IMG/VR virus record: IMGVR_UViG_2630968558_000009
DNA: 10,820 bases
Direction: 5' to 3' (one strand)
Origin: a virus
Taxonomy: Duplodnaviria; Heunggongvirae; Uroviricota; Caudoviricetes
Shown here: positions 3,747 through 10,820 of the stretch, piece after piece
Position numbering within the stretch: position 1 is the first letter of the stretch
Layout: each line of letters begins with the position of its first letter
Translations under genes and position numbers: made by a program
Notes under the pieces: model-generated
What the model was told of the DNA's origin: nothing
Seen by the model: only the letters and a program-made list of their open reading frames with translations
The model's database searches: none

Positions 3747-4026
3747 GCGTCCTGTCTCCCCGGTCTTTCTGCTGGGCGAGAAAATCGCGGCACAGGCCTT
3801 TGGCTTTCAGCTCATTCAGCACAAAATCAATATCCTCATTCAGGTAGCTGAAAATATGCGGAATGTAGAGCTGATGCAGGCCGGAGAGTTCACGGTGAAT
3901 CAAATCACCCCCAACAAACTGGGATACGGCGCTGGCGCGGTTGAGCTTATGGTAAGCCTCAATGCTGAGGTGTTCACGGGCGTCATGACGCGCTGAGACG
4001 GTCTGAGGGGCTTTTTTATTACGCAC
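3739..4026 (-). CDS. eps: Epsilon-like protein (in P4, the anti-repressor that derepresses the P2 helper prophage)
   Basis: 95-aa ORF directly upstream of and overlapping orf151. Assigned from size and synteny with the P4 left operon; I did not recognise the sequence itself. Confidence 0.55.
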
Positions 4027-4423
4027 GGGACACCTCCATCACCGGCAGACGGGCCGCAAGGGAGAGCACATAGTCACGGACAAGGGAACGGCGGGCACTG
4101 CGTTCATCACCGGCGACGGTGCGAAGCATGCAGATACGGGGATGACGGTCTGCGCGACGGACAGCCGCAAACACAAAGACAAATTCAGGGTGTGAAGGGG
4201 TAAGGGTCGTAGCCATAAGGCAACCTCCGATAACAGCGTAAATGACGCTATCGCCGGAGTTCTCACGCTCGATGGCGATAGCCCAGACGGGGGTGAGAAT
4301 ACCGGCGTTATCGGAAACCGGCCAGCCCGGAGGCTGCCCCGCCTGAGCTACCATTGACTCAGAGGCATAACATGCGATTGCGAACAGGATCATACCTGCA
4401 CGGCAAACCACACGCCACACCAT
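4019..4423 (-). CDS. Candidate kil/eta-position protein; start codon uncertain
   Basis: The 211-aa track ORF (4019-4654) overlaps vis in its 5' part, so only the 3' portion can be real. In-frame ATGs at 4423 (MVWRVV...) and 4393 (MILFAIACY...) sit downstream of the leader terminator. The stop at 4019-4021 overlaps the epsilon start (4026), suggesting translational coupling. Confidence 0.3.
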
Positions 4424-4455
4424 AATTTGGTGCTCTGTGGCGTTGATTGCGACAC

Positions 4456-4477
4456 AAAAAAAGACGCATGGCGCGTC
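4456..4477 (-). terminator. Candidate intrinsic terminator in the leader between the putative early promoter and the first ORF
   Basis: Minus strand reads gacgc-gccat-gcgtc followed by 7 U (plus-strand A-run 4456-4462, stem 4463-4477). The stem is only 5 bp, so this is tentative. Confidence 0.35.
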
Positions 4478-4540
4478 ATATGTCGCCGATAACATACTCG
4501 GGTTCTCACGCCCGGCTGCCGATTTTGCGACAGCGGAAAA

Positions 4541-4570
4541 ACTATATCCGCAAATGCCGGAAAAAGGCAA
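4541..4570 (-). promoter_or_regulatory. Candidate PLE-like early promoter of the leftward operon
   Basis: On the minus strand, TTGCCT (plus 4565-4570) then an 18-nt spacer then TATAGT (plus 4541-4546), downstream of the vis stop and about 110 nt upstream of the first ORF start. Sequence match only. Confidence 0.3.
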
Positions 4571-4605
4571 GCCAGAAAAAGGGAGTTTTTGCAGAACAGG
4601 CATCA

Positions 4606-4872
4606 TCATGCGTCGTACCCCCGTTTGCGTCCGGCAATGCGCCCGGCCATCCATGCGGTGACTTCAGAGTGCAGCCAGGCCACATTTTTACCGCCAAGAC
4701 TCACCTGCGGCGGAAATTCCCCCTTACGGATGAGTTCATAGATGGTCGAGCGTGACAGGCCGCACAGGTGCATCACTTCCGGCAGACGTAAAAAACGCTC
4801 CTGCGTGATGTCCGGCAGCGGCATCAGTGGCGTCACAGGGGAGGGAGACGGGGAAGAAAAAACAGCTTGCAT
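4606..4872 (-). CDS. vis: Vis-like AlpA-family helix-turn-helix regulator/excisionase
   Basis: 88-aa ORF with an AlpA-type HTH ([16 protein letters not shown]), GAGGT Shine-Dalgarno upstream of the ATG at 4872. It lies between the ori/late-promoter region and the early promoter, as P4 vis (orf88) does. Confidence 0.75.
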
Positions 4873-6414: not shown

Positions 6415-6987
6415 GTGACCACAATGTCATTACAGCAGGCTTTTGAGGTCTGCCAGAATAACAAAGCAGCATGGCTGCAACGCAAAAATGAGCTGGCTGC
6501 GGCCGAACAGGAATATCTGCGGCTTCTGTCAGGAGAAGGCAGAAACGTCAGCCGCCTGGACGAATTACGCAATATTATCGAAGTCAGAAAATGGCAGGTG
6601 AATCAGGCCGCCGGTCGTTATATTCGTTCGCATGAAGCCGTTCAGCACATCAGCATCCGCGAGCGGCTGAATGATTTTATGCAGCAGCACGGCACAGCAC
6701 TGGCGGCCGCACTGGCACCGGAGCTGATGGGCTACAGTGAGCTGACGGCCATTGCCCGAAACTGTGCCATACAGCGTGCCACAGATGCCCTGCGTGAAGC
6801 CCTTCTGTCCTGGCTTGCGAAGGGGGAAAAAATTAATTATTCCGCACAGGATAGCGACATTTTAACGACCATCGGATTCAGGCCTGACGCGGCTTCGGTG
6901 GATGACAGCCGTGAAAAATTCACCCCTGCGCAGAACATGATTTTTTCGCGTAAAAGTGCAGAACTGGCATCACGTCAGTCTGTGTAA
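6415..6987 (+). CDS. psu: Psu-like polarity suppression protein (in P4, capsid decoration and Rho antagonist)
   Basis: 190-aa ORF, the size I recall for P4 Psu. GTG start at 6415 with AGGAG Shine-Dalgarno at 6403-6407; the first ATG is at 6424. Third gene of the late operon, followed by a hairpin and cos. Confidence 0.8.
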   Translation: MTTMSLQQAFEVCQNNKAAWLQRKNELAAAEQEYLRLLSGEGRNVSRLDELRNIIEVRKWQVNQAAGRYIRSHEAVQHISIRERLNDFMQQHGTALAAALAPELMGYSELTAIARNCAIQRATDALREALLSWLAKGEKINYSAQDSDILTTIGFRPDAASVDDSREKFTPAQNMIFSRKSAELASRQSV

Positions 6988-7022: not shown

Positions 7023-7065
7023 AGCCATGCATCGATAAGGTGCATGGCTTTGCATGCGTTTTCCT
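7023..7065 (+). terminator. Candidate terminator downstream of psu
   Basis: Inverted repeat agccatgca (7023-7031), 9-nt loop, tgcatggct (7041-7049), followed by tt and then gcgtttt. The T-tract is interrupted, so confidence is moderate. Confidence 0.4.
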
Positions 7066-7151
7066 GCCTCATTTCCTGCAGATCACGCCGCGCCCGACGC
7101 GGCGTGAGCGTGTCAGTGCAACTGCATTAAAACCGCCCCGCAAAGCGGGCG

Positions 7152-7170
7152 GGCGAGGCGGGGAAAGCAC
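7152..7170. other. P2/P4-type cos site (19-nt cohesive-end sequence)
   Basis: Exact match to the recalled P2/P4 cohesive-end sequence GGCGAGGCGGGGAAAGCAC. A perfect 10-bp-stem hairpin lies just upstream (tcacgccgcg-cccga-cgcggcgtga, 7083-7107). Position between psu and the int-proximal cargo matches P4. Confidence 0.8.
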
Positions 7171-7259
7171 CGCGCGCATGTATGCAGGAAATAACTTGGT
7201 TCTCCAGCCAGAGAAAGAAACTTAACTGGAGAGTTTTGTGTTTTGTTACATGGATGTGT

Positions 7260-9020
7260 TCAGGTTTTATTTATTAATGAAATACTTTTCTCTAGTGACT
7301 CCTTAACTTTTTTTACGCTATTTTTTAATTCAATAATGGCTCCACGACGAAAAGAAATTTTAATTTCATCCAGGTATGAATTTAAAAACTCATCTAGTTT
7401 TTTTAGATGAGGTAGCTCGTTGGATAGAAAGTCACAAAGATTTGAGAAGTTATATACAGACAATAGATGGTTTGAAAATAATTGAATATCATAAATGGAC
7501 CAGCTATTTTGTATGGCATTTATGATTAAATCTACATCTAAGGTTTCCAGGGCTTTATACTTGAAATCTGAATGGTATATATCCATGTCGATAGCGGTCC
7601 AACCATCGTTAACCATCTTGTTTCTTAATTCTTGTATTTTTTCTTTTTCCGTTATTTCAATATATTTTTCAACGAAAAAATTATAAAGGTCGTCCCCATC
7701 ATGTTTTAGAATGTGGAGTGGTATGCTATTAATATTTGGAACAGTTTCATGAAAATATGATTTTATTTCATGGTCACTAAAGCTAAACATATTTTGTTTG
7801 ATGGTGTTTTCATCCAAGGCATCTACACGTGGTATATATTCAGATTCTGAGAGTCTAATATAGTTATTCGTGGCAGTTAGCCATGTGGATAGATTTGGAG
7901 AATTTGATTTTAAGATTGTTTTTGTTATTTCTTCCTGATAGTCATCTTCAGATATGCTATATAGTTCGGGCCTTGCTAATCCAGCATAATCATCTTTCTT
8001 GGGAGGAGTGTTGTAAGTAAAAACATATGGAAGAATATCTTTATGCGAAATTTCATTAAAACAATATGGAGCCATTTTATTATTGTAGTTTTTATATGCA
8101 ATAATGCTTAATAAATTGTTTTCCTCTTCACTTATTTTATTTTGTTCACTTTCTGGAGTGGTTGAAATTGTTCTATATGATGATGAAACAATATTTTCAT
8201 GGAATTCATTTTCCTTATAGTTGAATTTTTCCTTAAGTATTATATGTGCACACAATGAGCTTACTAAATTTTTAATATCTATATCAGAGATATCTCTGTC
8301 TTGAGTTGTTTGTTCAAAAAATGGTAGGAGTTTTACAATGACTCTATTAATAATCCGGATATTGGTTTCTTCGAAACCTATAATTACTTGCTTAATGATG
8401 TCTCTATAATTTCCTTGTGTCTTCTCAAGCTTTTTGTCTAAAATCTCAGAAAGATTGTTTATAGAAAAATATATCTCATCGCTAATAACCTTTTCTTTAT
8501 GATTCAATGCATTATTGCTTTGCTTTGAAAAGTTACCCACTAAAATATAATCTAGCATCTTGTTATTTTGATAATTTTGTAAGCAAAAGGTTGCTATTTC
8601 ATCTCGTAAAGTTTGAGGTATACGTTCTAGATCATCAATGATAAAAACTCCGGAAAGATCTTTTAATACATAATGTTGCATTGCTCCAGCAAATGTTGAG
8701 ATTATTTTTCCAGCCAACCTCCCAGTGTTTTCTTCTTTAGTAATAGCTGTGGTTACATTTGATGCTAACTCTGTAATTATTTCGATATCAGGTGGATTTT
8801 CTAAATAAGTTACACTCAACATCTTGTCTTTAAAATCTTGTAAACTGTTTAATCCAAGCACAGATATATAAAATTGGTTCTTGTGAGAATAATATTTTTT
8901 AAATTCATGTTGAAGGAAGAATGTTTTACCAACTCCCCACTCACCATTTAACAAAATTAGACCTTCACGTTTTTCACTTAGTAATCTAATTAAAACAGAT
9001 ATTATTGCGCTTTTATCCAC
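7260..9020 (-). CDS. KAP-like P-loop NTPase with an uncharacterised C-terminal region of about 400 aa; cargo gene of the cos-int hotspot; candidate anti-phage defence protein
   Basis: 586-aa uninterrupted ORF. GTG start at 9020 with AAGGAG Shine-Dalgarno 6 nt upstream. Walker A GEWGVGKT (residues 26-33, nt 8922-8945) and Walker B-like VFIIDDLER (residues 125-133), resembling the KAP-family GxWGxGKS/T and hhhhDDLDR signatures. No hydrophobic stretch of transmembrane length and no nuclease/PLD/HEPN motif that I can identify by eye. Strongly AT-rich relative to the P4 core. Confidence 0.85.
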   Translation of the reverse strand: MDKSAIISVLIRLLSEKREGLILLNGEWGVGKTFFLQHEFKKYYSHKNQFYISVLGLNSLQDFKDKMLSVTYLENPPDIEIITELASNVTTAITKEENTGRLAGKIISTFAGAMQHYVLKDLSGVFIIDDLERIPQTLRDEIATFCLQNYQNNKMLDYILVGNFSKQSNNALNHKEKVISDEIYFSINNLSEILDKKLEKTQGNYRDIIKQVIIGFEETNIRIINRVIVKLLPFFEQTTQDRDISDIDIKNLVSSLCAHIILKEKFNYKENEFHENIVSSSYRTISTTPESEQNKISEEENNLLSIIAYKNYNNKMAPYCFNEISHKDILPYVFTYNTPPKKDDYAGLARPELYSISEDDYQEEITKTILKSNSPNLSTWLTATNNYIRLSESEYIPRVDALDENTIKQNMFSFSDHEIKSYFHETVPNINSIPLHILKHDGDDLYNFFVEKYIEITEKEKIQELRNKMVNDGWTAIDMDIYHSDFKYKALETLDVDLIINAIQNSWSIYDIQLFSNHLLSVYNFSNLCDFLSNELPHLKKLDEFLNSYLDEIKISFRRGAIIELKNSVKKVKESLEKSISLINKT

Positions 9021-9032
9021 AAAATACTCCTT

Positions 9033-10223
9033 TTAGTAATCATAATTAACGCAACCGGCTGGATAAATAAAATCGCTATACCATTGTAACATTTTTAATC
9101 TTTTCTCTAAGTATTGAGCATGATTATATGTTCCCCTAATGCTATTTTTATCAACATGAGCTAGTTGCATTTCAATCCATTTACTATCAAAACCTTGTTC
9201 ATGTAGTATTGTCGACATTGTATGTCTAAATCCGTGGCCTGTTGCACGTCCCTTATAACCAAGTAATTCGATCACTTGTGATATACTTTCTTTAGAAATT
9301 GGTTTAGTACGATTGTTACGTCCAATAAATATATAAGGATAATGGCTAGAGAGCGGTTTTAATTGATTAAAGAGGGTAATAACTTGAGATGATAAAGGTA
9401 CAAGGTGAGGACGACGCATTTTCATGCGTTCTGCTGGTATTTCCCATATTCCTTTTTCTAAATTGACTTCTTCCCATGTGGCAAAACGCAGTTCTTGTGT
9501 TCTTACCCCGGTAAGCATCACAATCTTGGTTGCATTTTTAGTGATTATGCTGCCAGTATAAGCCTCAAGATCTTTGACAAAATGAGGGAGTTCTTCTGCT
9601 GATAGAAAAGGATGATGTTTTTGCTTCGGTACAGCTAATGCGATAGCTAAATCAGGTGCTGGATTGTATTCAGCGCGGCCAGTGATGATCGCGTAGCGAA
9701 ACACCTCTCCGCATCGTTGACGTACTTTTCTGGTTTTCTCCAACGCTCCACGTTTTTCTATGCGTTTAAGTACTTCAAGCAGTTCTAGGGGTTTTATTTC
9801 AGCTATTGGCCGTTTACCAATGAAAGGAAAAACATCCTGTTCAAATGTTTTAATAATTTCTTCGCGATAAGCTAAAGTCCAGCGATCTGCTTTTGCTGCA
9901 TGCCATTCTCTGCTAACGGCCTCAAAAGAGTTTTCAGATGATAATTTCTGAGCAATTTTCTGAGCCTTACGTTCTTCTACTGGATCAATGCCATTTGCAA
10001 CCTGTTTACGTGCCGTATCGCGTTTCTCACGTGCTTCCGCGAGGCTTACAAGGTCGTAACTACCAAATGACATTAACCGCGCTTTCCCTGCAAACCGGAA
10101 ACGGAAACGCCAGCCTTTCGAGCCATCGGGATTGATAAGCAATGACAGACCTTGTCCATCGTTCAATGTGTATGGTTTGTCTTGTGGTTTTGCACGTTTG
10201 ATCTGTATATCGGTTAGGGCCAT
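9033..10223 (-). CDS. int: P4-family tyrosine recombinase (integrase)
   Basis: 396-aa ORF starting MALTD..., as P4-type integrases do, with a C-terminal catalytic region containing HGFRHT and RGTYNHAQY (catalytic Tyr). Adjacent to the 3' end of the tRNA-Sec gene. Confidence 0.92.
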   Translation of the reverse strand: MALTDIQIKRAKPQDKPYTLNDGQGLSLLINPDGSKGWRFRFRFAGKARLMSFGSYDLVSLAEAREKRDTARKQVANGIDPVEERKAQKIAQKLSSENSFEAVSREWHAAKADRWTLAYREEIIKTFEQDVFPFIGKRPIAEIKPLELLEVLKRIEKRGALEKTRKVRQRCGEVFRYAIITGRAEYNPAPDLAIALAVPKQKHHPFLSAEELPHFVKDLEAYTGSIITKNATKIVMLTGVRTQELRFATWEEVNLEKGIWEIPAERMKMRRPHLVPLSSQVITLFNQLKPLSSHYPYIFIGRNNRTKPISKESISQVIELLGYKGRATGHGFRHTMSTILHEQGFDSKWIEMQLAHVDKNSIRGTYNHAQYLEKRLKMLQWYSDFIYPAGCVNYDY

Positions 10224-10385
10224 GTGTATAACTGAAAACTACGTATAAAAAATCTATACACATTACTATACATATTTTTCGCGGATTCAGGGAGATGATC
10301 TCGGACTATTACGGACAAGCTGATTATTCATCGCATTGAATATAAATGATTTTATGGAGTGTCTCGGAACTGGCTGGATGAGGTT

Positions 10386-10480
10386 TGGCGGAAGATCACA
10401 GGAGTCGAACCTGCCCGGGACCGCTGGCGGCCCCAACTGGATTTGAAGTCCAGCCGCCTCACCGGAGACGACGATCTTCC
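10386..10480 (-). tRNA. selC: tRNA-Sec (selenocysteine tRNA, anticodon UCA)
   Basis: Reverse complement of 10386-10480 reads GGAAGATCGTCGTCTCCGGTGAGGCGGCTGGACTTCAAATCCAGTTGGGGCCGCCAGCGGTCCCGGGCAGGTTCGACTCCTGTGATCTTCCGCCA: 95 nt, long variable arm, TCA anticodon, CCA end. It matches the E. coli selC sequence as I remember it. Confidence 0.9.
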
Positions 10481-10820
10481 GCGCCTCGATTGCTACATGG
10501 AGGCGGGGCGCATTATAGCTACTTCCTTGAGTTTCTACATCCCCTGGTTCATTTTTTTCCGGGCAATATGCGCAAAGCTTTATCACTAACCCATTATAAT
10601 TAACATAAATATCATATATTCCAATGATATATGGGTAGGTTTATCGCTACCACGATCACATAAAACAAGAATCATAAATTAATAACCAGATATCGGAATA
10701 TTCACTCTGGCAGGGATGGTTTACAAAACTCTTTATCGGTCTCAGCACCCCCATAGCAGTAAGCGGCTCGTCAGAACCGTATTGATATTTACTGAGAGCT
10801 CAGATCAACTTTCCAGGGCA

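Follow-up and report, generated by a model that had tools for sequence, protein, structure and literature searches.

How is a gene expressed when it starts 12 nucleotides (nt) beyond the stop codon of an integrase gene, too close for a promoter to fit in between? The question is raised by a 10,820-nt stretch of viral DNA (IMG/VR record IMGVR_UViG_2630968558_000009, Caudoviricetes; here called the window), which is a complete P4-like satellite prophage in E. coli selC. Its psu-int hotspot holds a cargo gene (7260-9020, minus strand) that begins with GTG and encodes a 586-amino-acid (aa) P-loop NTPase, assigned by Pfam, PADLOC and its homologues to the 'NOD-1' or AAA_22-NB-ARC family. Directly upstream, on the same strand, is int (9033-10223, ATG start), the gene for a 396-aa P4-type tyrosine integrase with the Pfam domains Arm-DNA-bind_3, Phage_int_M and Phage_integrase. 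From the sequence comparisons that follow, we consider it somewhat probable that the two genes form one transcription unit, in which the cargo gene rides on the int transcript and is expressed at a low level. Co-transcription is, on balance, the best-supported reading, ahead of a promoter inside int.

The int-cargo junction and its recurrence

An earlier note on this DNA, made from its letters and a list of open reading frames (ORFs), had described the junction, and every position that it gave is correct. On the minus strand, the int stop codon TAA (9035-9033) is followed without a break by AAGGAG (9032-9027), the Shine-Dalgarno (SD) sequence of the cargo gene, and then, after a 6-nt spacer, by the GTG start (9020-9018); the -10-like element TGTTACAAT, discussed below, is at 9091-9083. 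The gap from stop to start is exactly 12 nt (9032-9021). The tRNA-Sec gene selC (10386-10480, minus strand, attL side), identified by ARAGORN, by Rfam (RF01852, 83.8 bits) and by the annotated tRNA-Sec of homologous E. coli loci, is followed by int and then by the cargo gene in the same direction, so that both genes do read away from the tRNA. No terminator-like site was found between int and cargo, and no stable structure at their junction. Over the longer distance from selC to the cargo start, the only terminator-like site is one weak match in the 5' end of int (10160-10144). Beyond the cargo gene, a GC-rich hairpin with a T-run in the P4 cos region (7133-7152, minus strand; a terminator-like site with a fold z = -1.97) is the likely terminator of the int-cargo transcript.

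The argument for co-transcription is comparative. Junctions of this cargo family in a P4 context were collected from E. coli (four alleles), Mangrovibacter, Serratia, Yersinia, Klebsiella, Citrobacter, Kosakonia, Hafnia, Pectobacterium, Shimwellia and three metagenomic contigs, 16 in all. At every one, the cargo gene lies directly 3' of int on the same strand, with a gap of 10-40 nt and a recognisable SD. The order int-cargo is conserved across distant genomes, and the cargo proteins across the family are 52-99% identical to the query. Half of the 16 cargo genes have a non-ATG start, GTG in six and TTG in two (window; L023, L098-L109), as compared with about 17% of E. coli genes, and this frequency suggests selection for low translation in the NOD-1 family. 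The sole homologue found outside a P4 element (L107) has about 400 nt of non-coding DNA upstream, with a consensus TATAAT; it apparently starts 39 nt before the called start, at a TTG preceded by AAGGAG.

The close packing is not peculiar to this family. Eight cargo types occupy the space between psu and int at E. coli selC, next to cos, in otherwise homologous elements, and six types besides the present one are co-oriented with int. Measured from the int stop, they start at -11 nt (HEPN), -8 nt (helicase+DUF2290), -4 nt (a hypothetical protein plus a kinase), +4 nt (GapS4ab), +9 and +19 nt (DEAD-helicase pairs) and +12 nt (SIR2), often with the SD or the start codon within the last int codons. 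Only one of the eight, TrlF, has the opposite orientation, being convergent with int. A survey of 80 int relatives, one per species, gave a similar picture for the co-oriented cargos in psu-positive loci, eight of nine of which start at most 34 nt from int, and found seven other psu-positive loci with cargo in the opposite orientation; the automatic ORF starts used there are partly mis-set and the counts are approximate. At locus L023 the cargo gene starts at +13 nt. With starts this close to int, there is hardly ever space for a separate promoter in front of co-oriented cargo, and tight spacing is, judged on the loci compared, a recurrent and conserved layout beyond chance. Taken together, the 16 of 16 same-strand junctions, the lack of a terminator and the six other tightly spaced cargo types give good comparative support to the suggestion, made in the earlier note, that the cargo gene could be co-transcribed with int.

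The int gene itself changes character towards the cargo. Its GC content drops from 0.45 to 0.34 along the gene, approaching a cargo of 0.29 GC, and the AT-rich 3' third co-varies with the cargo, the correlation between the GC content of this third and that of the cargo being weak (r = 0.28). In codon-aligned comparison, the int gene of the HEPN locus is 98-100% identical to that of the window over codons 60-180, and that of a DEAD-helicase locus is 90-98% identical up to about codon 240; 3' of these blocks, identity to the window falls to about 70-78%. After the conserved M-x-Q-W-Y-S-D motif, the C-terminal tail of the integrase differs by cargo type. As the alignments with L006-L017 read, the selC-type P4 int genes are recombination mosaics with breakpoints inside int. 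The mosaic profile and the cargo-specific tails indicate that cassettes are exchanged by recombination inside int, so that the 3' part of the gene and the C-terminal tail of its product travel with the cargo.

How the cargo gene may be expressed

Under co-transcription, the cargo gene would be transcribed from one or more promoters upstream of int, the transcript ending at the cos hairpin (7152-7133), and would be translated independently from AAGGAG-N6-GTG. The presumed promoter (Pint), together with Int-arm and IHF sites, would be in the interval between selC and int (10224-10385, minus strand), which is conserved in an alignment of 13 loci; we infer its promoter function from P4 and from the selC-associated island PAI I536 (PMC7286903). 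Sequence conservation over these 162 nt is high in the 13 loci, as would be expected of a promoter region bound by Int and IHF. This interval has no terminator-like site, and its fold is no more stable than that of shuffled sequences (z = +0.69). The int leader (10232-10275, minus strand) contains repeated GTATAG/TATAC motifs (GTATAGTAATGTGTATAGA...TTATAC...TTATACAC), nearly invariant in the 13 loci, which are probably Int arm-type or regulatory sites overlapping Pint.

PAI I536 offers the closest experimental parallel. Its intI gene lies beside selC too, and encodes a P4-type integrase that shares the C-terminal QWY(S/A)D motif with that of the window (primer MC138). A yfp gene replacing intI is readily detectable, whereas yfp placed directly after intI is barely expressed, at the native site or on a plasmid, because IntI represses its own promoter (PMC7286903); a gene placed after int there behaves as the distal gene of an autorepressed operon. 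The island is a different one, the sequence following the tRNA differs (primer MC11) and the reporter had no strong SD. Autoregulation of int in the window is assumed from this likeness. P4-type integrases repress their own promoter, and the cargo would thus be expressed strongly just after entry and at a low steady state in the lysogen. Low expression would fit a STAND-like sensor and the frequent GTG and TTG starts of the family. A related arrangement is known from E. faecalis (EF_B0058/EF_B0059), in which a recombinase gene is followed by a defence gene on the same strand, less than 100 nt away, and the two share one mRNA in the founding case (PMC13552941). The recombinase there is a small serine recombinase, and the pairs are found on Bacillota plasmids and islands, whereas the window has a P4-type tyrosine integrase on a satellite, for which we infer co-transcription.

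Published clones bear on the same question. The cargo family is system 11, "AAA_22/NB-ARC", of Rousset 2022, with 110 occurrences including the ATCC 8739 and EC19 proteins by accession (PMC9122126, Table S1). The representative tested, NOD-1 of E. coli ATCC 8739, is a 588-aa homologue, about 63% identical, and likewise directly follows a selC-type int; its allele differs in having an ATG start, a 29-nt gap and TGATGCAGT in place of TGTTACAAT. The NOD-1 clone (pFR82), which carried only 123 nt from the 3' end of int besides the 29-nt spacer, gave no defence against eight coliphages or P2-like phages. The clones of NOD-1, NOD-2 and SIR2 had only some 90-140 nt from the 3' end of int to serve as "native promoter", and none gave defence (PMC9122126, Table S2B). 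These inactive clones are consistent with there being no promoter in the int 3' fragment, which is not proof. PARIS-1 has a longer intergenic region, of about 130 nt, yet it showed no activity in its native context and needed Ptet (PMC9122126). The primer used by Rousset for the helicase+DUF2290 system, which would give the extent of int in that active clone, has no match on the loci compared.

Several points weigh against co-transcription as the route to cargo expression. The evidence for it is the layout of the genes. With a Pint as tightly autorepressed as that of PAI I536, there would be almost no cargo expression in most lysogens, which would be odd for a constitutive defence gene. The negative results of Rousset may reflect the phage panel and not a lack of expression. 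In Shimwellia, an intact cargo gene follows an int that looks truncated, at a contig end. Finally, TGTTACAAT is the best sigma-70-like sense-strand site between the tRNA and the cargo, and passes a promoter scan in sister loci; and a promoter hidden in the int 3' part, which travels with the cargo, would be co-inherited with it.

On the Shimwellia pseudoproteus contig (L104, positions 1-260), only the last 55 or so int codons precede the cargo gene. The 90 nt upstream of them are unrelated and end with the contig, possibly at an insertion sequence, and a transposase gene lies beyond psu.

The last two of the points against co-transcription belong to the alternative proposed in the earlier note, that an extended -10 promoter in the int 3' end (CTTAGA-17-TG-T-TACAAT, with a start near 9076) drives the cargo independently of int. 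We find this doubtful, and with it the constitutive cargo expression that such a promoter would give in the lysogen while int stays repressed. The note had put the element about 60 nt upstream of the cargo start, and it is indeed 62 nt upstream of the GTG, inside int. TGTTACAAT (9083-9091, minus strand) consists of TG, one base and TACAAT, and so has the form of an extended -10: positions 2 and 6 of the hexamer are the critical A and T, and a TG precedes it at a distance of one base. It ranks top of 1585 sense-strand positions (about 1.6 kb) with a crude position weight matrix (PWM) and a TG bonus, the matrix being built on consensus frequencies and fit only for rough ranking. The homologous site in EC19 and Klebsiella, TTTAGA-17-TG-T-TACAAT, passes a sigma-70 scan with the TG extension, and in EC19 is the only match in 1.55 kb. 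Across the 16 loci TGnTACAAT is intact in seven, whose cargo proteins are 60-86% identical to that of the window where measured. AT-rich horizontally acquired DNA often carries active intragenic promoters, and the motif here lies in DNA of 31-34% GC. Co-transfer of the int 3' part with the cargo is also in favour of such a promoter, and autorepression by Int argues for the need of one.

The statistics speak against it. TGNTANAAT occurs once in the window as against 1.66 times expected, and 160 of 200 shuffles contain at least one match. The sigma-70 scan that finds the EC19 site returns no sense-strand promoter-like site in the window from 9021 up to the tRNA. When the 200 nt preceding the cargo start are shuffled, 37% of the shuffles reach the PWM score of the real sequence, as do 86% of synonymous-codon permutations of the int tail. 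When the permutation test was run on 13 loci, only GapS4ab (P = 0.02) and SIR2 (P = 0.08) stood out, and the result combined over the 12 co-oriented loci is not significant (Fisher, by hand, p ~0.3); selection for promoter-like motifs in int tails was accordingly rejected.

Comparison across loci points, less clearly, the same way. The nonamer spans the int codons ATG-TTA-CAA-TGG (Met-Leu-Gln-Trp), and the -10 is destroyed by other codons (ATG-ATG, TTG, CTC, CAG-GTA) in seven of the 16 junctions and weakened to TACAGT in two. The choice of CAA over CAG for the Gln, split by whether the preceding codon ends in TA, is 7:3 versus 2:4 and shows no significant constraint (one-sided p ~0.18, a small sample). 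The -35-like hexamer CTTAGA (9106-9111, minus strand; junction comparison), 17 nt upstream of TACAAT, matches the consensus at three of six positions, whereas the sister alleles have TTTAGA, with four; the window differs by a synonymous Tyr codon, TAC in place of TAT, that degrades it. The inactive ATCC 8739 clone, moreover, carries the homologous region, in which the element reads TGATGCAGT. Unlike extended -10 sigma-70 promoters proper, then, the motif is at chance frequency and shows no clear conservation in orthologous junctions. The claim of an internal promoter is thus unsupported: TGTTACAAT looks like a codon by-product in AT-rich DNA, which might still fire but shows no sign of maintenance. 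A second hexamer, TATAAT at 9128-9123 (the catalytic Tyr-Asn codons), was considered as an alternative -10 and rejected: the nearest TTGATA is 20 nt away, leaving no usable -35, and the hexamer varies synonymously among alleles (TATAAC, TACAAT, TACAAC).

The layout could also imply translational coupling, in which ribosomes ending int re-initiate at the GTG 12 nt further on and cargo output tracks Int translation. We think this improbable. It would be favoured by the 12-nt gap, by the other cargo types that overlap int by 4-11 nt and have the SD in the last int codons, and by the GTG and TTG starts at eight of the 16 loci, which would weaken de novo initiation. However, the SD is strong, optimally spaced and unstructured, so that no unmasking by an upstream ribosome is needed; masking of the SD by RNA structure, which would require coupling, is ruled out by the fold of the junction (minimum free energy -12.7 kcal/mol, z = +1.1).

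The tight coupling described in the earlier note stands, then, as far as the window's own 12-nt gap is concerned, but the gap is 29-40 nt in sister alleles, so that for this cargo a close approach of stop and start is not a conserved feature. In EC19, the closest sister allele (96% DNA identity in int), int ends at a TGA 18 nt earlier and the cargo starts with ATG after a gap of 30 nt. At this position (9053-9051) the codon is TGC in the window and TGT in two other strains; the int of the window consequently has six extra codons, Cys-Val-Asn-Tyr-Asp-Tyr (9036-9053, minus strand; alignment with EC19 and junction table). The difference between the two gaps may thus reflect a single change between TGA and TGC, which is a further point against coupling. 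In ATCC 8739 and WP5, E. coli alleles that are less closely related, the gap measures 29 and 33 nt, respectively, and the cargo gene starts with ATG; the int tails of the outgroup alleles are not homologous. Since all three outgroup alleles use ATG, the GTG of the window is probably derived from ATG.

Co-transcripts of a tRNA and an mRNA exist in E. coli, for example in the tufB operon, and count in favour of one further route. This would be read-through from the constitutive selC promoter, with the tRNA cut from a long transcript running through int into the cargo and the native selC terminator moved by integration to the attR side, and although the three genes are co-directional, 10224-10385 has neither a terminator-like site nor a stable hairpin, and the duplicated att core at 1-12 places the sequence that follows selC in the empty site beyond attR, we regard it as very unlikely, because substantial read-through would make Int constitutively and leave the element unstable, and because the intI-yfp construct of PAI I536 was no brighter behind the chromosomal selC than on a plasmid, which argues against a large selC share on the assumption that the plasmid had no selC promoter.

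The cargo protein and the surrounding element

The cargo protein matches Pfam AAA_22 and KAP_NTPase just above threshold, and PADLOC assigns it to candidate family PDC-S49 (6.5e-11), for which a literature search found no papers. It has a Walker A motif, GEWGVGKT, and a Walker B motif, FIIDDLE; GEWGVGKT and VFIIDDLER are invariant in 24 homologues. The homologues form a narrow family of 577-592 aa in Enterobacterales. The AlphaFold model (pLDDT 75.5) has an N-terminal NTPase and a helical C-terminal half. A fold search with this model gave only weak matches of the ORC/Cdc6 type of AAA+ protein (best E = 1.3e-3, TM ~0.2-0.3), which back no more than a predicted "AAA+/STAND-like NTPase". A sequence search of the PDB found no match, and no separate effector domain (nuclease, TIR, SIR2 and so on) was detected outside the NTPase by Pfam, NCBIfam or PDB searches. 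The earlier note took the cargo to be a defence gene. Its location in the P4 defence hotspot and the PDC-S49 candidate match agree with this, but NOD-1, the one homologue with a published test, showed no activity, and the label is a reasonable guess from location and is used here as an assumption. A homologue 54% identical to the cargo (L107, 1040-3234) lies in a P2-like phage hotspot, beside genes for portal, terminase and GmrSD_N proteins, which indicates that the family moves between P4 and P2 hotspots.

Pfam and Rfam find the core genes and immunity RNA of P4 in canonical order, and these, together with the attR core and cos, identify a complete P4-like satellite at selC. Pfam domains found in the window are the integrase domains, Psu, Ogr_Delta, Derepression (epsilon), Phage_ASH and those of the alpha primase (Zn_Ribbon_Prim/Toprim/D5_N). 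The core of the att site at the 3' end of selC, GACTCCTGTG, occurs again at positions 1-12 (attR). The other border of the hotspot is psu (6415-6987, plus strand; Pfam Psu, 1e-88), convergent with the cargo gene, and between the two is cos, with a sequence identical to the cos segment of the P4 sequence cloned by Rousset. A 61-aa ORF (7040-7225, plus strand) between psu and cargo overlaps the cos region; some RefSeq genomes list it as a hypothetical protein (for example L013, 441-626), and others leave it unannotated.

Rfam places the C4 antisense RNA (the P4 CI immunity RNA) at 4271-4358 and isrK at 4457-4534, both on the minus strand. Both fall within the longest-ORF call that bears the Ash domain (4019-4654), the true start of which is probably further downstream. 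Beyond the 3' end of the alpha primase gene are two direct repeats of 122 nt (139-260 and 320-441) with 83% identity; the repeats have iterons of the GTGAACA/TGTTCACC type and resemble the P4 crr replication region.

The 3.9-kb right end is matched over at least 80% of its length by 26 complete E. coli genomes, the best being 98.8% identical, and selC-type int relatives occur in 482 of 5426 genomes. In the best E. coli matches the alignment ends at query position 3859 of 3921, which leaves the last 60 or so nt of the window (10759-10820) unaligned; on the yicJ side, the flank is thus different from that of the best-matching genomes.

The element shares with the P4 psu-int hotspot elements already described (Rousset 2022, PMC9122126; PMC13586616) the genes int, psu, delta, sid-like, epsilon and alpha, the C4/CI RNA and cos, as well as the locus itself, between cos/psu and int, whose cargo varies among otherwise homologous elements. 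The element, the hotspot and the cargo family are thus already catalogued, and the junction in itself is ordinary. In canonical P4, the gop-beta-cII genes run from cos in the direction of int, behind an upstream region of their own, whereas the cargo of the window reads away from int and has no intergenic space. Hotspot cargo has been reported to be "found in either orientation" (PMC9122126; PMC13586616). The int-abutting layout, cargo-specific int tails, breakpoints inside int and int-cargo operons are not described in PMC8628076, PMC13586616 or PMC9122126, and the first three of these are incremental observations.

What the layout means for P4 hotspot cargo

A wider claim, which we stop just short of calling probable, is that in many P4-like satellites, and in nearly all cases in which the hotspot cargo is co-oriented with int, this cargo is the distal cistron of an int operon, with its ribosome-binding site in a cargo-specific int tail, and that cassettes are swapped inside int. 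The matter has a practical side. Whether short "native" fragments suffice to assay hotspot genes abutting int depends on how these genes are transcribed, and at least three such systems cloned in this way have given negative results. If the claim is true, systems cloned with only the int 3' end (NOD-1, NOD-2, SIR2) may be false negatives in published defence screens. Breakpoints inside int would explain both the movement of cassettes and the mosaic P4-type integrases with variable C-termini. Defence expression would, again if the claim is true, be wired to integrase autoregulation, with a burst on arrival in a new cell and a low level in lysogens, which the weak GTG and TTG starts of the NOD-1 family would lower further.

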